Origin: Candidatus Saccharimonadota bacterium
Lineage (GTDB): Bacteria > Bacteroidota > Bacteroidia > Cytophagales > Amoebophilaceae
Direction: 5' to 3'
NCBI RefSeq assembly: GCF_965196625.1
Contig: NZ_OZ239769.1
Coordinates: forward strand, 1-32,000
DNA: 32,000 nucleotides
The notes below the pieces were generated by a model that worked only from the letters and a program-made list of their open reading frames with translations, had not been told where the DNA came from and ran no database searches. This document shows positions 6,363 to 25,659 of this stretch, one piece after another. Both the position numbers and the translations under genes were made by a program. Each line of letters starts with the position of its first letter. Position 1 is the stretch's first letter.

Positions 6363-9300
6363 CTAATCGTCTTTATCCTTCTCCTTTCTTCTACCTTTCG
6401 CTTTGTCTTTAGAAATATTTAGTGCATTTTTGGCTGCTTTTTCTAATTCAGCCGCTATATCTGCGCCCAAGTATTCATTGGCCAACTTAACATCTATGGA
6501 AAGGGTTTCTTGCGCCATATGGACAACCTCTGGCAAATGGATATAGCCTGAAGCATGGCGCAGATCATAAAGCCGCTCGGCCAGTTTGATAAAGAGTACG
6601 GAAAGCTGTACGTGATCTTCCTTAATAGCTTTTTGCAACCGATTCTCAAGATAAAGCAGAGAAGGATGGTCTAATGCTTGGCGTTTATCTACGCCTAGTA
6701 CATTTAATACAAAGGCATATACACCTAAGTTATAGTGATCCCTCACGTAAGAAAGGGGGCAAACAAGTGTGGCGCACCAGCTCATAGAGCAAAGAAGCAT
6801 AAATGACCTTAGGAGAGTGAAAAACCCACTCTACCACTAATTTCGAAATGCCTACCGCCCGTACATAAAACAATTGGCCAGAGGCATGCCGCTTAAAGCC
6901 AAAATGCTGCCGCAATAACAAAAGCAAACCGGAAATCGTACCTAGGTCAATAGGATCCATATCATGAGAAAATTGAGAGACATGGTCATGGAACTGCATG
7001 AGTTCCATCATGGAATCAGCTTGTTCCTTAGGGGTTACAGGCGTTTCTGAGGTCAAGCAATCTATGGGTAATTTAGCAGTCATCTTATCACGAATTTCTA
7101 TAACATCAATAGGCAGTACCAGGAGCATAGTAGGTTGCTGCACACGCGCAACATATTGTAAATAGCCATAATGCGCACCAACAATACTAGATATGGTTTG
7201 CTGCTGCAGGTCTATGGATGGGGGTATCGCCTGTTTTCCTGGAGCAGCAATAATATCTATCTTATCTTCATAGAGGTCTTTTACTTTAGGAAGGGCCTCA
7301 GAATCGGTAGTGGCTTGGCTGATGACCAAGGCAGTAGCTTGAAAAAGCATAAACGAAGGACAACCGCTGTCAATGGGATCAACTTGCTTAAATTGTAAAG
7401 CAGTAGTATGCAGCTGTACTTTAACAAGTGGTGTAATAGAACCCTCTAGCTTACCCACACGTAAAATAGCCTGAACCAATAAGTAGACGACCTGATTGAT
7501 GTCGCATACCATATAAGGGGATGGCCATCCATTCGGTTCTTTTACGTGCTCTACAAAGAGTTTAGGAGGATGCGCTACCTCTTGGGACAAAGCAAACTCT
7601 ACCTTGCGCATCAGCTTATCTAAAGAAATTTTAGCAGGTCGCAGGAGTGCATGGTCCTTGGCCTTGGCTCTTTTATTAAAATAGGCCACCCAATCATAGA
7701 GTTTATTGATAATACTCTAAAAATCTTGCTTATAAAGAGGCATATTTCCATCTAAAAATGAGACCGATTGCTCAATTTTACGAATTACTTGTTCTAAAAT
7801 AGAGCCATAACGTTTAGAGAGGTTAAGCGCAGCAGATCGTACCATAGTCAAATCATAGAGCGACTCTTTTAATTTCTGAGATACCCTAACTTTATCTTGG
7901 TTTTTTAAGTAAAGATTTTGGGCCATATAGCCACCTACTTTAACTTTAAAACAAATAATCATAGCAACCACCAATAGGGTGACCATAAACAATGGAAATA
8001 GCGAAGATAAGACTGAAAAAGACAATCCAACAGAGATAGGATAAATAGCTACTAATAATGCAGTTGCAACCACTCTAATGCCCAGATAGAGCGGCAATAC
8101 CCATAAGATTATAGCATAATGGGCCAAGGATAAAGATGCGCTAAAGATCGGGTCCACCAGATGCCACCAGTACCAAAGCAGGTTTAAAGGCAGATAAAAA
8201 ACGCAACCAACTAGCCAGCATAAGCCGATCAACCAACCTGGGCTGTTCTGGTTAAAAAAGCTGTTATAGCGCATAAACACACCATAAGATGTAAAAAGAG
8301 CCCCCAAAAGGCCTTGACATATGCCCCAATAGACAAGCTCTGGTTGAATAAACCAATAACCCAGAATAGCAGTAACGATCATATAAAGCCCCGTCAAGCG
8401 TAAGGTACTATCGCTAGGCCTCAGCTTGGCCAAGGTAAATTTTCTATTGGCCCAAGCATTTTTAATCGTTTCTTTTCGTTCCGCGCACTTGCGCACATGC
8501 GCTTGTTGCATTTGCTTAAACTCGTTATCTGGTTCAACCCACCCCAGACCATTGGGCTGTTTGAGTAGATAATGAGCCGCCATCATAGCCAGCCCATTAA
8601 CGGCCATAGCAAGAAAAGAACCATCCATTCCTATGCATGGCTCAATCCATTTTTTCCAGCCTAAAATACTGAATACACCTGTAGCTATGCCAATCAAAGC
8701 GGTGCGGGAAGTACCTCGAAATCCAAATATGGCCAATATAAAAGGAGCCGTTATGGTAGGTACAAAAATGTCAAGCCCCCAATAGAGCAGCTGCAATAGG
8801 TCATTGCAGTAAAAACCTAACATCATGGCCAATAAACCTACCACTAGAGTGGCCCATCTGCCTATTTTAAGCTGAAATGCATCAGTGATCTCTTTTTGAT
8901 TGTATAAGCTTTTCACCATATCATGGCCAACCATAATCGCACAAGCATTTAAAGAAGAATCAGCCGTAGACATGGCCATAGCCAGCAAACTAATGGCAAG
9001 AAATCCTTTAAAAAAAAAGGGAATATGGTCCATTAGATAACGCCAAATCTCTTCTTTCGACAAGTCTGGTGCGCCTATAAAAATAAATAGACCAATGAGC
9101 ATTATAAAAGTGGATATCACCATACTGAATAGGGTGGCATATGAAAAAACTTCTTGAGCTTGCATGGGTCCAGAAGACATATAGACCCGCTGCATAAGCT
9201 GAGGCAATATAGAGGAAGCCATCAAAGATAGAAACAGCAGCAACATATCTACCAACTGGAAGTTAAAATGGAATAGATTGCTAAATTGAAATTTAGCATG

Positions 9301-9945
9301 CCCCTGTAGCATAGGCAGGATCTCTGAAACGGGTTTATCTACTTTTAGAAACATAAGCCAAGCCAAAAGAGGAATAATAATAGCAAAAGTTATAAATTGA
9401 AATACATCTGTAAAGGTAACGGCACGAATCCGCCCAAATGTGGAATAAAAAATAAGCAGTAAAGTAGCCACAATAGGCATTATATAGGGGTTTGTTATCT
9501 TCAAACATATGCCAATAGCCTGAGACATTACACTGATTTGCATGGTAATAATAAGGACCGTGCTACAAATACCAACCAACGCAGTTACCATTCTTGGATA
9601 CCTACCATAAATATTACCGATCGTCTCTGCTATAGAAAAGTGCTGCATAAATGGCTCCATACGCAAAGCCAATCGACCAACTATCCACAAACCAAAGGAA
9701 GATAAAAACATAATAACAATCCACCATAAGCCAATACAATGGACACACTCTACATTGCGCACTAGCCCTCCACCTCCATACACCGTAGCCAATACAGTGA
9801 AGACCAGGGTAGCAGTAGCAAACTGTTTATTACCTACCGCATATTCTCGAAAAGAAGTTTTTTTTCTACTAAAACAGATGCCTACGAGCAAGGTAAATAC
9901 CAAAAAAACAGCCACTATACATAGGGACATATCAAAATATATCAT
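6363..9945 (-). pseudogene. SSS-transporter / degenerate histidine-kinase-like / degenerate RelA-SpoT HD-like fusion protein, copy 1. Split into three ORFs by an in-frame TAG and a +1 frameshift.
   Basis: ORFs 7717-9945, 6730-7689 and 6363-6800 are colinear with the continuous reading frame of the paralog at 29612-32000. TAG at 7717-7719 stands where the paralog has CAA. The frame change falls in the G5 run (C5 on the coding strand) at 6755-6759. N-terminus FREYAVGNKQFATATLVFTVLATVYGGGG is sodium:solute symporter-like. C-terminus IKLAERLYDLRH and AQETLSIDVKLANEYLG resembles the RSH hydrolase domain. Confidence 0.8.
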
Positions 9946-13302: not shown

Positions 13303-13977
13303 CTACCCAGCAGTGTGAATAAAAGTAAAGACCTTTTTACCCTCTTTCACAAACTCATTATGCCGCCTTATAGCATACCCAGTCTCTAGAATGCGAAAAT
13401 CTTTAATTTCACCCTTTTTCTTTTTAGCCTTTAAAGGATTGTCTAGTGATTCACTAACCCCTAGCTTACCGTCTATTCCTATAGAAATAATCAATATAGC
13501 GTCTTGAGCATTGATAGGATCTATAGCCAACCATTCTTCTAAAAAGGGCAACGGCAGACCAGCTTTCTTACCTTTATCTTCATCATAATAATGCTTGTAC
13601 TTCATGCCTTCTTTGATCGTTTTAGAAAACTTTTCCTCCGTTATACTGCCATAAAAATTAGGCGTTAAGACCACGTTAATGGTTTCTGAGTCCGTTTGTA
13701 CAATGTTTCCTGTAACATTTGCACCAAAACCATTTGGATTAAAACATTTTTGACGATCCGTAACATGAAAACGCAAAGCCTTTAAACCACATTTGGTAAT
13801 GATGCACTTACCTTTATCCAACTTATTCTCTAACTCATTCAACACATGCCATTCGGGATGAGGAGTTATATGTTTGACTTTATCAGAAGGGCAAGATCCA
13901 GCCCAGAATAGAGACAATGGAAGCATAGCAATGAAAAGCTTTTTCAAAGAAGAGAACCAATATAGAAAATAACGCAT
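13303..13977 (-). CDS. Hypothetical exported protein or lipoprotein
   Basis: The ORF track gives 13303-14076. The ATG at 13977 gives MRYFLYWFSSLKKLFIAMLPLSLFWAGSC, a signal peptide ending in Cys. I recognise no family with confidence. The C-terminal part (ILIISIGIDGKLGV...FRILETGYAIRRHNEFVKEGKKVFTFIHTA) only vaguely recalls Mth938/DUF498-like folds. Confidence 0.55.
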   Translation of the reverse strand: MRYFLYWFSSLKKLFIAMLPLSLFWAGSCPSDKVKHITPHPEWHVLNELENKLDKGKCIITKCGLKALRFHVTDRQKCFNPNGFGANVTGNIVQTDSETINVVLTPNFYGSITEEKFSKTIKEGMKYKHYYDEDKGKKAGLPLPFLEEWLAIDPINAQDAILIISIGIDGKLGVSESLDNPLKAKKKKGEIKDFRILETGYAIRRHNEFVKEGKKVFTFIHTAG

Positions 13978-14270
13978 GCGCAAAAATGAAATAGAGCCAT
14001 CCAGTATATAGCACCAACCCCAGTGCTTTTTCAAAGCTAAAAAAAATAAGCCAAATACAAAAATGATTAGAAACAACCACTACCAAACAGATTAGACAAA
14101 GCTATTGTATAATACAATTGAATGATTTGGATGATTACGCATATAATAGATAAACATTTATCTAACAGCAAAACAAAATCCCTGGTTTTTTAGAAAAAAA
14201 GACGTAATATTGTGGAGTATTGTTCTTTTTATCGCCAAAGACTTTCCTATAGCGATAGGTTTTCTTAAAG

Positions 14271-15405: not shown

Positions 15406-16476
15406 ATGTTTCCGTTTAATACTATTGCTATTTATCTAACTATTTTACTTTCTATTATTGGTTGTGAGTGTCGTAGACTATCTGAAATGCCTTTGATACA
15501 TGAAAAGTCAGATTCCGGTCCGCCACTCATCGTCTTGTTTCATGGATTGGGTTCGGATGCCGCTTGTTTTAGTATGCTGAAACAGAGACTTGAGCGAAGT
15601 TTCCCTGATGTTGATGTAATTGCTTTATCCAGTGTAAAGGAGAACAATAATACGTTCCTTCTTTCCATAAAAGAGCAAGCCAGCCAGTGCTTTCAGGACC
15701 TTTTAAAAGAGACAGATAACTTAAGAAACAGACCCACCCTATTAATAGGTCATAGCCAAGGTGGTCTTCGTGCTTATAAAATGCTTGACCTATACAGGAA
15801 CGAGTTAAATATAAAAGGCATCATTACCCTAGCAACACCATGGGAAGGCGCACCTGCCCTTAATCTAAATGATGCATGGGTTTCAGGACTTTTGGAACAT
15901 CCTGAATTCATAGAGGAAATGAAAGCCTTTTCTCGTGCCCTTGGTAAACATGATGATACTTATCTTGAAAATAAAATTAAATCAACCTTAGAATCATTCA
16001 AATCTGGAGATGGCACGCCTGGATTTGATGATTTAAAACCAGAAAGCGAGTTCTTAGCAAGGGTTAAAGCAGCCCTTTCTAGTGAAAGCATTCCTATACT
16101 AGCCATAGGCGGTGCACAAAGTGACTTTAGGGTTTTCCTAAGTAAGAAAAGAAATAATAACTTTAAACTATTGCGTAATATATGGACCCAATTCATAATG
16201 GCCAACACTGATCACCTCAAAAATGATGAAAACAAACGCCATGATATGGTTGTTCCGTTGTACAGCCAGCTTGCATCGAATTGCGTCTCTGAACAAAATA
16301 AAAATTTCGAAAGATACACTATTGACGATGCCATTCATGACGAAATTTTAGAGTTACCCTATAATAAAAAGTCTAGAAACATACTCGCGCATCCTGATAT
16401 GTTCAAAACGGTTGAAGAATTTGCTAAAAAGGTATTAGGCAAATGCCAACCAAACAATTCCGTAGATGCTGCTTAA
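15406..16476 (+). CDS. Alpha/beta-hydrolase, lipase/esterase-like with GHSQGG nucleophile elbow; probable lipoprotein
   Basis: Leader MFPFNTIAIYLTILLSIIGC with lipobox IIGC, an oxyanion-region VLFHGLGSD, a GxSxG motif LIGHSQGG, and late Asp/His candidates (DDAIHDE). 356 aa. Confidence 0.75.
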   Translation: MFPFNTIAIYLTILLSIIGCECRRLSEMPLIHEKSDSGPPLIVLFHGLGSDAACFSMLKQRLERSFPDVDVIALSSVKENNNTFLLSIKEQASQCFQDLLKETDNLRNRPTLLIGHSQGGLRAYKMLDLYRNELNIKGIITLATPWEGAPALNLNDAWVSGLLEHPEFIEEMKAFSRALGKHDDTYLENKIKSTLESFKSGDGTPGFDDLKPESEFLARVKAALSSESIPILAIGGAQSDFRVFLSKKRNNNFKLLRNIWTQFIMANTDHLKNDENKRHDMVVPLYSQLASNCVSEQNKNFERYTIDDAIHDEILELPYNKKSRNILAHPDMFKTVEEFAKKVLGKCQPNNSVDAA

Positions 16477-18390: not shown

Positions 18391-19830
18391 ATGTTGTACA
18401 GTATCCTTCTAATGTTTATCCTTTCGTGTAGTAAGTTAATAGGTTTTATACATCATAATGATAACAATTATAATCTTAGGATAAGAGACCAAAAAGAACA
18501 AAAAGATATTAAGCACACTACAAAACAAGGTTATGTTACATCCGAAGATTATTGGGATGATTATGTTGAAGAAGGGCAACCAACCTATTCATTACACAAT
18601 GCAACGTCTAAGAATGAAATCCTGAGGGTTCAGATCATGCTCAATCAAGACTACCTAGAAGTACAATGTAAAAATATAGATCAATCCGATATGAGGGTTA
18701 ACACAAAAGACGACCAAGGTTATCTTCCTATACATTGGGCAGTAAGCAAAAAATTCTCAAATAAAAGGGGGCGGTATGCCCAGACAAATTTAAAGATATT
18801 AGAACTATTGTTACCCTATCCTAGCAGTTACCAAGGAGATAAGGAGGGCATGACTATCCTGCACTACGCAGTAAAAAACCAGCTCCCAGAATCTGTAAAA
18901 CAGATATTGAAGCATTTTAGAAAACAACTTCCAAGTTTCATCAATCAAAAAGATAAAAACGGGTTTACTGCGCTACATTATGCAGTGGATAAGGATACAG
19001 ATAAAAATAAAAATTATACAGAAGCACACCTTAAAATATTGCATACATTGCTACAAGATGCTGGTATTGATATCATGGAAACAGATAACGATGGGCAGAG
19101 TGCCCTCCATTGGGCAGTAGCAAATAATAATCTAGAGGCTGTAAAAGCGCTCTACGAATATGCTAAATCAAAATTCCCATTATCCTATAAAGATTTCATA
19201 AACATGAAAACTTTTATAAACCCAAAAACCAATATAGGGGGATGTCCTGCTATATACTGGACAACAAGTCCAGAATGCCCACCAGAAGATGCGCAAGCTT
19301 CTAGAGCAATAAGTTTAGAAATATTCAAGTTATTATTGCCTGAATGGGAAATGAACAACACAGACAACCAAGGGCAGACGCTTGCCCATTGGATCGCTAG
19401 GCGAAGTCGTAATGATATGCTTAAGGAGCTCATTAAGCGTAATAAAAATTTTGATCCTAATATGCAGGATAACCAGGGTTATACCATTTTGCGTACCACA
19501 ATAGCGGCAATACATGATATCGAAACCAACATACCAGGTAAACTTGAAAGCCAAAAAAACTACAAAAATGCACTTCTTCAACAATGCTATTGCATAATTA
19601 CTCAGATATCAAACTTACAATCACCTAGAATAGATAAGGATACAAAAAATAGGCATGAGGCGGAACCTATTGCAATAGACAACCTTAATCAGCTAGTAGT
19701 ACAAAAAAGCCAACTAGAGAACCAAATACCACAACCAGGCAACAAACGGCCTAGTAAAGCAGCAAAAAAACGCAATGAAGACCTCCCTTTGCCCCCTAAG
19801 AAAAGATATACAGGCAAGAAGTTTACCTAA
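18391..19830 (+). CDS. Ankyrin-repeat protein with basic, bipartite NLS-like C-terminus; candidate host-targeted effector
   Basis: At least six ANK units: GYLPIHWAV, GMTILHYAVKN, GFTALHYAVDK, GQSALHWAVANNNLEAVKAL, GQTLAHWIARRS, GYTILRT. C-terminus KRPSKAAKKRNEDLPLPPKKRYTGKKF. N-terminus MLYSILLMFILSC is a possible signal or lipobox. Confidence 0.9.
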   Translation: MLYSILLMFILSCSKLIGFIHHNDNNYNLRIRDQKEQKDIKHTTKQGYVTSEDYWDDYVEEGQPTYSLHNATSKNEILRVQIMLNQDYLEVQCKNIDQSDMRVNTKDDQGYLPIHWAVSKKFSNKRGRYAQTNLKILELLLPYPSSYQGDKEGMTILHYAVKNQLPESVKQILKHFRKQLPSFINQKDKNGFTALHYAVDKDTDKNKNYTEAHLKILHTLLQDAGIDIMETDNDGQSALHWAVANNNLEAVKALYEYAKSKFPLSYKDFINMKTFINPKTNIGGCPAIYWTTSPECPPEDAQASRAISLEIFKLLLPEWEMNNTDNQGQTLAHWIARRSRNDMLKELIKRNKNFDPNMQDNQGYTILRTTIAAIHDIETNIPGKLESQKNYKNALLQQCYCIITQISNLQSPRIDKDTKNRHEAEPIAIDNLNQLVVQKSQLENQIPQPGNKRPSKAAKKRNEDLPLPPKKRYTGKKFT

Positions 19831-23002: not shown

Positions 23003-23827
23003 TTATTCAACTTTTTTTAATGCCTGCCTATTCTCTTTAGCCTTTTGCATTTGACTATATCGTTCAGCTTCAGATGCGCGTATCACACGCCAATAGGAAG
23101 CAGCCGCAGCATGCTTACTAGATTCAGATTCTAAAACCACCGTCCACAATTTATAATCTATTGCAAAATCTGAATGGGTTAGGGGGCCACGCCATGAACT
23201 TGATACTACTAAGCCATTACCCTCTTGACCTTTTTTTAAATTACACAACCACTCAGCATACTGTATATATTTGTAATCTTGAGCAGCGCCTAGATTTTCA
23301 TCTTCTCCATTGCATACAATGCATATATTACTTAACTGCTCCTGACTCAACCCAGTCTCTTCCAATACAATTGGAATGCAATCAGGATATGCTATAGAAG
23401 CAAAAATAACGACCTTATAGTTTTTCTGTAAACAATCAGTAATCAACTCCTTAAAACCTTCAGGATCATAAAGCCTATCCCTCTTTATTTCCGCTAATAG
23501 TTCCCTATCTATACACTCCGTATCTAGTGTACCCTGAGGTTTCAAAACAATACGCTTATAGACACGCGTTACTCGCTCATCAGGAAATATGGTAAAATAG
23601 TCATTGCTAGAATATTTAACCTGACCTTTTGGAAAATAGGGTTCTAGACCAAGCCTTCCTTCTTTAAATAAAGAATAAAACTCAATACAAAGTATGTTTA
23701 CAGATTCTTGCTTTTCTTGGCCAACTTCTTCTACACCTCTTAGACCATGTGCACATTTTACCAAACCATTACCATATAAGCCAGGACGCAACATCGTGCA
23801 TTGCATAAGCTGAATGATACATACCAA
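23003..23827 (-). CDS. Hypothetical protein, start uncertain
   Basis: 274-codon ORF with non-repetitive, globular-looking composition. The track start is a TTG, and the frame stays open about 85 nt further upstream without an ATG. I recognise no family securely. Confidence 0.5.
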   Translation of the reverse strand: MVCIIQLMQCTMLRPGLYGNGLVKCAHGLRGVEEVGQEKQESVNILCIEFYSLFKEGRLGLEPYFPKGQVKYSSNDYFTIFPDERVTRVYKRIVLKPQGTLDTECIDRELLAEIKRDRLYDPEGFKELITDCLQKNYKVVIFASIAYPDCIPIVLEETGLSQEQLSNICIVCNGEDENLGAAQDYKYIQYAEWLCNLKKGQEGNGLVVSSSWRGPLTHSDFAIDYKLWTVVLESESSKHAAAASYWRVIRASEAERYSQMQKAKENRQALKKVE

Positions 23828-24294
23828 ACCAAAGACAAACCCTTTTATATATATATGCTTTACCCATAACCATTGCGTTCGAAGATAAAAACAGGTAGAC
23901 GCACCCTATAACTATAATAGGAGTTATGAAATAAATTATATAAAAGCAACATAAAAACCTTGTAATAAACAATATTTTTATGTATCGTGCTTTTTGGTTG
24001 TTAATACAATTAACTTGCCTTAATATTTTGCATGTATAATCTATTATTTGTATGATGCAAGTAAAAGTGACTGATAAAGCTAACGCAGCTAGAGACTTGC
24101 AAGTCAAAATATTGAATAATGGGTATACCCAATTAAAACGATTATTTAATATCTAGCAAACTATAAATAACATTTTACTAGAGTAAAGAAATGGTTCGAC
24201 AACTTAAAATTAAGCACACCTGATGCTGTTGATTACTCATACTACCGCAACTGGTTAACTTTATTCTTCATTGTTTACCCATTCCCTTCTCATC

Positions 24295-24350: not shown

Positions 24351-25659
24351 TTACGCAAGTCTCTCAGGATACTTGATCATGCCACTATCAATGTAAAACA
24401 TGCCCATTGTGTAGAGTTTGCTATTGGGATATCTTTTCCACCCAAAACCTCGGCCTTTGCTTCTATGGGTCAAGTATCTGCGAAATCGGTTATTGATAAA
24501 GCTCTGCAATTTCCGAAAAGCTTCACTGGCATTCGTATGTTTAAAATAGTTTACCCATCCTAATACTACTGGTTTGATTTGCTCCGTGAATGCCACCGGT
24601 TTGATTGGTGCTCTCCTACAAGTCAAATATTTTAATCTGTTACGAATATTTTGCTGGGATCGTTTTGATGGAGACACATAGATGGTATTTCTTCCACTTA
24701 TTCGACTTTGTCTTTTTACAAAGTTAAAACCTATGAAGTTAAACCCTTCTGTTAGTTTCGTTATATGTGTCTTTTGGTGGTTAATAGTGAGCGATAATCT
24801 CTTGGCTAATTCTGTGAATCTTTCCAGCGCTAACTTGGCACTCTTGCGGACATACTAGAATTACATCATCACAATATCTGTGTAAGGTTGCGTTTAGTTT
24901 TTCTGGATAGCTCCTTGAATGCCATACTTGGTCTATAACATTTAGGTATATATTACTATACAATGGTGAAACCGGAGAACCCTGAGGAACACCAACTTTC
25001 TTCTTGCTTATAGCTTTACCGTGTATAACCACTGAGGTCGTGAGAGTTTGCTTGATTATATGCAACATACTGCCATCTGCTATTCTTTTACTAATCAGTT
25101 TTAATAACTTTTCGTGTGGAATACTTGTGAAGTATGATTAAAAATCTATCTCAACTACTCCCCATGCCTGCTGGTATAGATCGTCATGGATGGCCATACT
25201 TGCTTGTTTGGCGCCTCGTTTCGGTCTATAGCCGTATGAACATTCATGAAAATCAGCTTCGAAGATCGGTTCAATGACTATTTTAATGGCTGTCAGCACT
25301 ATGCGGTCTTCTATGGTCGTTATCTCTAGGGGGCGTGTGCCGCCTTTGGGTTTAGGTATTTCTACCAACCTGCTTGAGCTAAACTTATATAGCTTGGCGC
25401 ATAATTGCTTTTGCAATTTATTGATAATCAATTCTTCACCTGCTTCTATTATATCATTTATGCTTTTACCATCAATCCCTGCTGAACCCTGGTTCGACTT
25501 GACTTGACGCCATGCCTCCCAAAGTACATCTGATCGATATATTTTATCGTATAGACTATAAAATCTGACTTCCTTACTTTGCTTGGATTTAAGATATAGA
25601 GTTCTTTGGAGTTGCCGAACTTTTTGTGTTCCGTTCATAGCGTTTTTGCAATCAGACAT
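24351..25659 (-). pseudogene. Group II intron reverse transcriptase/maturase, inactivated by one in-frame TAA and one frameshift
   Basis: RT motifs GSAGIDGKS, KPKGGTRPLEITTIEDRIVL, YGYRPKRGAKQA, GVPQGSPVSPLYSNIYL and RYCDDVILV. Maturase X domain LGWVNYFKH. TAA at 25138-25140 interrupts VVEIDF*SYFTSIPHEKLL in frame. A frame change occurs at about 24830-24850, where ...ILVCPQE continues as SAKLALERFTELAKRLSLTINHQKTHI in another frame. Confidence 0.85.

Follow-up and report, generated by a model that had tools for sequence, protein, structure and literature searches.

Among the closest described relatives of the gene reported here are fusions of sodium/solute symporter (SSS) proteins to kinases, namely CbrA, CrbS/MxtR and PrlS with their STAC and PAS domains; no HD or SpoT fusion is described in a review of these proteins (PMC7918813). 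In the Amoebophilaceae, an expansion of related genes has been counted as putative Na+/solute symporters (PMC5698495, PMC8831229). All 12 "symporters" of cEper1 are expressed, two of them among the top-expressed genes (PMC5698495), and 10 of the 19 symporters of unknown function in Amoebophilus asiaticus are regulated across the infection cycle (PMC8831229). From copy number and annotation, we infer that the genes of these two studies belong to the family described here. From the side of the RelA/SpoT homologs (RSHs), a "rickSpo[H] expansion" (15 RSHs) was recorded in Amoebophilus, in a text with 0 occurrences of symporter or transporter (PMC3153485), and Brown et al. reported 18, 7, 3 and 2 homologs of a "spoT .../sodium glucose cotransporter" (PMC6232779). 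We have analyzed a gene of this kind at 6363..9945 on the minus strand of a 32,000-nucleotide stretch of contig NZ_OZ239769.1 (hereafter the window). A first-pass annotation, made from the sequence alone, had called it an unrecognised architecture, a symporter fused to a pseudo-histidine-kinase and a pseudo-(p)ppGpp-hydrolase. That description went too far in one respect, as both the SSF plus HD_4 annotation and the family expansion are already public. It holds for the kinase-like module and for the missing catalytic residues, neither of which is described in the literature searched, where coverage of subscription journals is thin.

The gene is a recently inactivated member of a multi-copy Amoebophilaceae (Cardinium/Amoebophilus) family, and its bearer is the Cardinium endosymbiont of the insect Nabis limbatus. 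Our preferred reading, to which we assign a probability of about 60%, is that an ancestral sensor-controlled hydrolase was turned into a conserved regulatory pseudoenzyme on the transporters of these endosymbionts, and that the window copy died recently. The pseudogene runs from an ATG at 9945 to a stop at 6363-6365 and is read as three consecutive open reading frames (ORFs; 7717-9945, 742 aa; 6730-7689; 6363-6800). The first-pass annotation had read through two frame-breaking lesions, and both were located. An in-frame TAG stop (7717-7719, minus strand) replaces a Gln, Q743, of all homologs (KQDF(stop)SIINKL here vs KQDFQSIINKL in homologs), and a C5 homopolymer with a +1 insertion (6755-6759, minus strand) shifts the frame at codon ~1063. 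Deleting one C from the run restores CLPLSYVRDHYNLGVY, identical to the ortholog, and regains the stretch RHTCLPLSYVRDHYNLGVYAFV, the same as in the closest homolog. A third lesion is additional to those annotated, a G172R missense change (9430..9432, minus strand) in the near-invariant SSS motif FGGIR. All peptide strings quoted in the first-pass annotation are present in the window. Repair was carried out in silico by reading the TAG as a Gln codon and removing the extra C. The resulting 1193-aa product is ordered as SSS transporter, six transmembrane (TM) helices, a histidine-kinase-like module and an RSH-HD-like domain. It aligns without gaps to its best homolog, P0001, with which it is 77% identical and colinear, both proteins having 1193 aa. 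The neighborhood of P0001 is syntenic (SpoU methylase, Era, DnaG, peptidase M3 and a thioesterase-like hydrolase), and P0001 is therefore taken as the intact positional ortholog. Programmed readthrough at the TAG and programmed frameshifting at the C5 run were considered and rejected, since ~90 intact homologs all have Gln and the C4 frame in a single ORF.

The C-terminus (aa 1011-1160; 6465..6915, minus strand) has a RelA/SpoT-type HD (HD_4) fold according to Pfam and to phmmer alignment with B. subtilis Rel (8acu). After repair, HD_4 (PF13328) is matched at 29.2 bits for the whole protein and 33.2 bits for the domain (gathering threshold 27.2); the unrepaired ORF3 alone scores 19.3 bits. The mechanism of RSH hydrolases depends on metal ligands and a catalytic ED dyad. 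Using Rel numbering for residues H53 to N148, HASGQLFYVRA (6847-6894) pairs with RKSGEPYIIHP of Rel (H53R, P54A), LLYELVRHT (6766-6798) with FLHDVVEDT (H77Y, D78E, E81R, D82H), and IKLAERLYDLR with IKLADRLHNMR, where IKLAERLYDLRH (6555-6593) holds D144E, H147Y and N148D. The Mn2+ ligands H53, H77, D78 and D144 thus read R, Y, E and E, and the catalytic E81-D82 reads R-H. The first-pass annotation had proposed both an RSH hydrolase-type domain and the replacement of its metal and catalytic residues (HP to RA, HD to YE, HN to YD), and both are borne out by the motif-by-motif alignment to Rel. The pseudo-site has kept the SG, the aromatic FY and, in the KLA(D/E)RL..xR motif, K, R145 and R150. These residues have nucleotide-binding roles in Rel/Mesh1 structures, and the persistence of the SG, the two aromatics and the KLAxRL..R Lys and Arg would be consistent with residual nucleotide binding.

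Intact homologs number ~90 in Cardinium/Amoebophilaceae (~1160-1200 aa, with precomputed Pfam SSF and HD_4 matches). A single genome holds several of them, with at least 8 known for the Philonthus spinipes strain and 14 or more for a C. hertigii genome (1.19 Mb). The catalytic columns were read in all family members possessing a C-terminus. They are canonical (H53/H77/D78/D82/D144/N148) in 61 sequences, all from other Bacteroidota (the outgroup below), including metagenome-assembled genomes labelled Candidatus Amoebophilus sp., and read R/Y/x/x/E/D in ~93 sequences, all from Cardinium/Amoebophilaceae. H53R, H77Y, D144E and N148D are near-invariant, even among paralogs that are ~30% identical. 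The HD domains of these colinear canonical-site homologs match long Rel/RSH at E ~1e-36 and 45% identity (P0189, the best long-RSH match, is an Acidocella Rel). In a neighbor-joining tree of the HD domain, built without support values, the degenerate sequences group in a single, long-branched clade next to the canonical sequences. Within the degenerate clade, mean pairwise identity falls from 0.65 in the HD-like domain through 0.54 in the SSS core to 0.40 in the ATPase-like (CA-like) domain of the kinase-like module, and 21% of HD-like positions are at least 95% invariant. The comparison of the window copy with P0001 (dS ~0.85) gave dN/dS of 0.149 overall, 0.037 for the HD-like domain, 0.163 for SSS and, in the kinase-like module, 0.080 for the hairpin (DHp) and 0.225 for CA. 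As P0001 and the ~90 intact paralogs and orthologs share the non-canonical residues, the degeneracy is not drift in the window pseudogene. Pseudogene drift had been named as an alternative when the locus was first annotated; with intact copies found and the degenerate residues conserved in them, it is excluded. Judged from the aligned sequences, the degeneracy of the HD site is clade-wide and selected, and the domain is a predicted conserved pseudoenzyme. A profile of the middle domain found 328 cluster representatives (E<=1e-3) of 1.84 billion, mostly ~1150 aa long with the domain at ~680-980, and the family is, by this count, small and specific.

The N-terminal part (aa 1-470; 8536..9945, minus strand) is an SSS (SLC5/LeuT-fold) Na+/solute symporter core, as originally annotated. 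Pfam SSF (PF00474) is matched at E 5e-10 to 1e-9 with 38-39 bits (cutoff 22.8) over profile positions 1-406 of 406; the match to NCBIfam TIGR00813 (54.7 bits) falls short of the strict cutoff for that model (184). Among solved structures, the sialic-acid symporter SiaT comes nearest in sequence (5nv9; phmmer E 9e-4). A full-length AlphaFold model of P0001 (monomer; pLDDT 81, pTM 0.70) served as structural reference and showed a LeuT-type 13-TM fold that superimposes on SiaT 5nva (E 5e-12, TM 0.81, rmsd 3.8 A, 494 columns), with CHT1, SGLT2, NIS and vSGLT as the next structural matches. The segment AMAMSTADSSLN (8947..8982, minus strand) aligns with SiaT AAAQSSISSSLN, with conservation of at least 90% throughout the family. 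Within the TM8-equivalent helix, MSTADSSLN pairs with QSSISSSLN of SiaT at the same level of conservation (at least 90%). The SiaT segment aligned with AMAMSTADSSLN carries the Na2-site Ser pair. Across the SSS core, 15% of positions are at least 95% invariant within the clade. The core keeps conserved transport motifs, and intact members are predicted to carry out Na+-coupled transport. In the P0001 model, aa 474-507 then form a cytoplasmic linker helix and aa 512-665 a further six TM helices (together 7930..8535, minus strand), which bears out the earlier mention of extra TM helices. The sixth of these extends without a break into the cytoplasm (643-700), an arrangement shared with membrane histidine kinases.

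The middle module comprises a helical hairpin like that of the dimerisation and histidine phosphotransfer (DHp) domain (aa 673-770; 7636..7929, minus strand), delimited by profile alignment to DHp helix 2 of ThkA, models and alignment columns, and an alpha/beta domain like the CA (HATPase_c/GHKL) domain (aa 771-965; 7051..7635, minus strand), placed by ThkA/ZraS alignment and Foldseek. Pfam searches of the whole protein and of the isolated middle region (E<=1) did not match HisKA or HATPase_c; among the profiles named in the first-pass annotation, PF00474 and PF13328 were thus matched and PF00512 and PF02518 were not. A 29-sequence profile of the middle region matched ThkA (3a0r) at E 2.3e-6, followed by ZraS, AdeS and bacteriophytochrome kinases. 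The AlphaFold model of this region had a pLDDT of 73 (CA part 80-93). With it as query, the top 50 Foldseek matches were all DHp-CA kinases, led by ZraS (E 2e-10) and then RetS, CckA, HK853 and DivL, and 243 matches were obtained at E<=1e-3.

This HATPase-like fold lacks its catalytic boxes, as had been proposed. The Mg-binding Asn of the ThkA N-box is Arg here (ILRVG, within 7450-7506) and Tyr in the outgroup, ISQATTD (7303-7332) stands at G1, and the GxGLGL of G2 is replaced by SIDLQQ. The closing IVEqHGGtI...lP motif of kinases is retained after it as IVGAHYGY...LVLP (7111-7218). The decay of the kinase-like module predates that of the hydrolase, because the outgroup is also without ATP-binding boxes. 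The first-pass annotation had further proposed a DHp hairpin with no His at the H-box. No conserved His was found in DHp helix 1 at either of two candidate sites, where Cardinium proteins have Tyr or none and the outgroup homologs have any of H, Y, D and E. The exact position, by comparison, did not hold up as a single site. The site first proposed, SKRYGSILEQVIRKIE (aa 710-725; 7771-7818, minus strand), fits canonical His-to-hairpin spacing, and KLKESLYDLTMV (aa 691-702; 7840-7875, minus strand) lies at the end of the TM-continuous helix. At aa 691-702 the Cardinium paralogs conserve LKASLY[DE]..VP, for which the outgroup counterpart is AL.(H/Y)EE.F; this motif may be an H-box remnant with Tyr for His, reminiscent of DivL. 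A DHp-only profile of the canonical-site homologs matched mostly designed coiled coils in the PDB, with kinases at E ~0.01 and no usable H-box alignment.

Intact members are inner-membrane proteins of ~1180 aa. Under our preferred reading, they would descend from a membrane-sensor-controlled (p)ppGpp hydrolase. In that ancestor, the transporter and TM module would have signalled solute availability via a dimeric kinase-like transmitter whose role was that of a scaffold rather than a kinase. Within the clade of endosymbionts, this hydrolase would then have become a pseudoenzyme, having lost alarmone cleavage yet remaining the most constrained part of the protein. The HD-like domain would most likely act as a ligand- or partner-binding regulator that tunes or reports host-solute uptake, paralog by paralog. 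The roles proposed in the first-pass annotation, a solute-gated scaffold or an alarmone-binding sensor, are conjectural.

Several points weigh against this reading. The step from an ancestral hydrolase is inferred from motif conservation rather than enzymology, dimerisation of the DHp hairpin is assumed by analogy, the model being a monomer, and the confidence of the DHp model is moderate (pLDDT 50-75). A long Rel has been listed for Amoebophilus only (PMC3153485). Some outgroup organisms may themselves be intracellular: the contig of the canonical-HD homolog P0116 encodes a TLC-type ATP/ADP translocase (L002 1-686), and on this finding we dropped the label "free-living" for the outgroup.

A wider version of this reading is possible but doubtful. 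It supposes a hitherto undescribed signalling design of Bacteroidota, in which transporter and 6-TM sensor drive a kinase-like transmitter with a (p)ppGpp-hydrolase output, and which endosymbionts would have turned into a 12-19-member array of transporter-linked pseudoenzymes. By binding alarmone, some other nucleotide or a partner, the inactive hydrolase domains would sense or gate the import of individual host metabolites. If true, such a design would wire solute availability directly to the stringent response in Bacteroidota.

The association of transporter and sensor extends beyond the fused proteins. At two complete loci of other Bacteroidota, the transporter has an SSF gene to itself, which directly precedes, in the same orientation, a gene encoding the 6-TM, kinase-like and HD parts (L003 2535-6037 and L004 2200-5680), the members of one pair being 33 bp apart and those of the other overlapping. 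The transporter-sensor association is thus conserved whether fused or split. Matches of 500-800 aa with canonical sites were considered as SSS-less variants, an idea rejected as a general claim: contig ends truncate many of these proteins, and for two that are complete an SSF gene is present directly upstream. A stand-alone 480-aa SSF gene is located just upstream of P0116.

It is unlikely that family members are non-transporting "transceptors", in which the SSS part would bind a host metabolite and the output would be purely protein-protein signalling. The conserved association, fused or split, and the continuity of the last TM helix with the transmitter helix would fit such proteins, and SSS domains are sensor inputs in CbrA/CrbS/MxtR-type kinases (PMC7918813). 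However, the SSS core retains transport and Na-site motifs, with 15% of its positions at least 95% invariant, CbrA itself transports histidine (PMC7918813), and reduced genomes rely on imported metabolites (PMC3486910). Gene neighborhoods also reveal no evident partner protein: no conserved partner gene is common to those of the window gene, the ortholog P0001 and two outgroup homologs.

Rather improbable, in our estimation, is an HD-like domain that is still an enzyme, with a rebuilt Arg/Tyr/Glu/Asp site acting on another substrate or independently of Mn2+. Its replacement residues are invariant and chemically reactive, and the domain is under very strong purifying selection, but a binding pseudoenzyme predicts the same pattern equally. 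Four metal ligands and the catalytic ED dyad are gone together, and no precedent for such a rebuilt site was found in the searched literature. Among further full-length cluster representatives (50%-identity level), 15 of 45 are off the canonical HD motifs, for example with LLHNTVDV, LMYGIVDET and KLAERLHIMRT in the P0394-P0488 set; one representative, P0450, looks Amoebophilaceae-like. These motifs suggest that the hydrolase site has been eroded repeatedly.

We consider it very improbable that the window gene is intact and its lesions are sequencing or assembly errors. One lesion does sit in a homopolymer, the C5 run, and relaxed selection is not seen downstream of the lesions, with dN/dS vs P0001 of 0.16 upstream of the two frame-breaking lesions and 0.15 and 0.10 downstream. 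Against errors stand three lesions that are independent and differ in type (a nonsense change from C to T, an insertion in a homopolymer, and G172R, which hits a nearly invariant Gly) and a neighboring paralog broken by an insertion sequence (IS) with a clean 8-bp target duplication. Public annotation likewise ends at 742 aa: the first ORF is 100% identical to the annotated 742-aa protein P0015 of the Cardinium endosymbiont of Nabis limbatus. Family fragments are also common in Cardinium genomes (PMC12039267). Among the positions with at least 95% conservation in the clade, the window copy deviates at G172R alone. Because dN/dS is equal on either side of the lesions and only this conserved residue differs, the gene must have been inactivated recently in comparison with the divergence of the two Cardinium strains. 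At best, the window copy is predicted to yield a 742-aa truncated transporter with G172R, and the full protein could not be made.

Least probable of all is that the kinase-like and HD-like regions are functionless relics and only the SSS part matters, for although truncated SSS-only forms recur in the family (P0015, P0067, P0070, P0091), both catalytic centers are lost and 15/45 full-length cluster representatives are off the canonical HD motifs, the HD-like domain is the most conserved of the clade, its dN/dS of 0.037 is four times below that of the transporter core, its replacement residues are near-invariant down to ~30% paralog identity, and coding sequence of no use, ~1.5 kb in each of 12-19 copies, would be unlikely to last in a ~1 Mb genome.

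The window holds a second copy of the gene at 27226-32000, as the first-pass annotation had stated, in a broken state on the plus strand. Its N-terminal fragment (aa 1-73; 27226..27444) was identified by tblastn and is interrupted at codon ~73 by an IS256-family insertion sequence (27445..28776, minus strand; Transposase_mut ORF 27479-28693). This element looks complete: its terminal inverted repeats are imperfect, and its target site is duplicated over 8 bp, TCGGCCTT. The remainder of the copy (28777..32000) is frameshifted in an A7 run (29617-29624), and its frame is open from 29600 up to the end of the window. Its degenerate motifs are of the same kind as those of the first copy (HASGQLFYVRAVGI, LLYELVRYT and IKLAERLYDLRH). 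This copy is also dead. Abundant fragments of the family have been reported in another Cardinium genome (PMC12039267). The region shortly before the second copy (26001-27000) is markedly AT-rich (GC 0.276 vs ~0.38 elsewhere) and has no long ORF.

Other features of the window include dnaA, which opens it (183-1391), and fragments of a group II intron reverse transcriptase/maturase (24351-25725, minus strand; GIIM ORF 24351-24677 and RVT_1 fragment 25138-25725), which look like a decayed retroelement. Two eukaryote-like genes are candidates for host interaction; one encodes a palmitoyl-protein-thioesterase-like alpha/beta hydrolase (15406-16476), the other an ankyrin-repeat protein of 479 aa (18391-19830). 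ORFs of 477, 257, 274 and 112 aa without a Pfam match are located at 2803-4236, 13303-14076 and 23003-24107; the last interval holds two overlapping ORFs (23003-23827 and 23769-24107) that may be one frameshifted gene.

The family takes up ~4-5% of the very small genomes of Cardinium and Amoebophilus, as computed from published counts and genome sizes (0.89 Mb with 12 copies of ~3.5 kb, and 1.88 Mb with 19; PMC5698495, PMC8831229, PMC3486910). The question about its members shifts from what they import to what they sense or regulate, and counts of "SAH/rickSpo" or "spoT" genes in these symbionts are a poor measure of alarmone-hydrolase capacity. The series from canonical to dead active sites is material for studying the conversion of an RSH hydrolase to a pseudoenzyme. 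As for the canonical-site homologs, we know of no earlier (p)ppGpp hydrolase hard-wired to a membrane transporter/sensor, and through them the coupling of nutrients to the stringent response becomes directly testable.

The family combines known kinds, namely SSS-fused sensors, RSH hydrolases and pseudoenzymes, and is not categorically new. With the SSS sensor kinases CbrA, CrbS/MxtR and PrlS it shares an N-terminal 13-TM SSS part and a cytoplasmic DHp-CA transmitter, the transporter being the signalling input (PMC7918813). In contrast to the CbrA type, it is without STAC or PAS in the Pfam scan (SSF and HD_4 only), has a linker helix and six extra TM helices between transporter and transmitter, and lacks the phospho-His and the N, G1 and G2 boxes. 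Its output is an RSH HD domain, whereas that of the CbrA type is phosphotransfer to a response regulator.

With RSH hydrolases (the HD of long Rel/SpoT, Mesh1 and rickSpo), the family shares the HD_4 fold and a motif-by-motif alignment to B. subtilis Rel. Small alarmone hydrolases are stand-alone proteins of ~200 aa, whereas the HD here forms the last ~180 aa of a ~1180-aa membrane protein; in long Rel the HD is N-terminal to the synthetase, and here it is C-terminal. In the Cardinium/Amoebophilaceae clade, unlike in these hydrolases, H53, H77, D78, E81, D82, D144 and N148 are all replaced. The pseudo-kinases DivL (Tyr for His) and RetS resemble the middle module in that the DHp-CA fold is kept and catalysis lost, and DivL 4q20 and RetS 6dk7/6dk8 are among the best Foldseek matches, a prominence that may be due to chance. 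DivL and RetS retain a nucleotide-binding CA domain, whereas the ATP-lid glycines of the family are gone.

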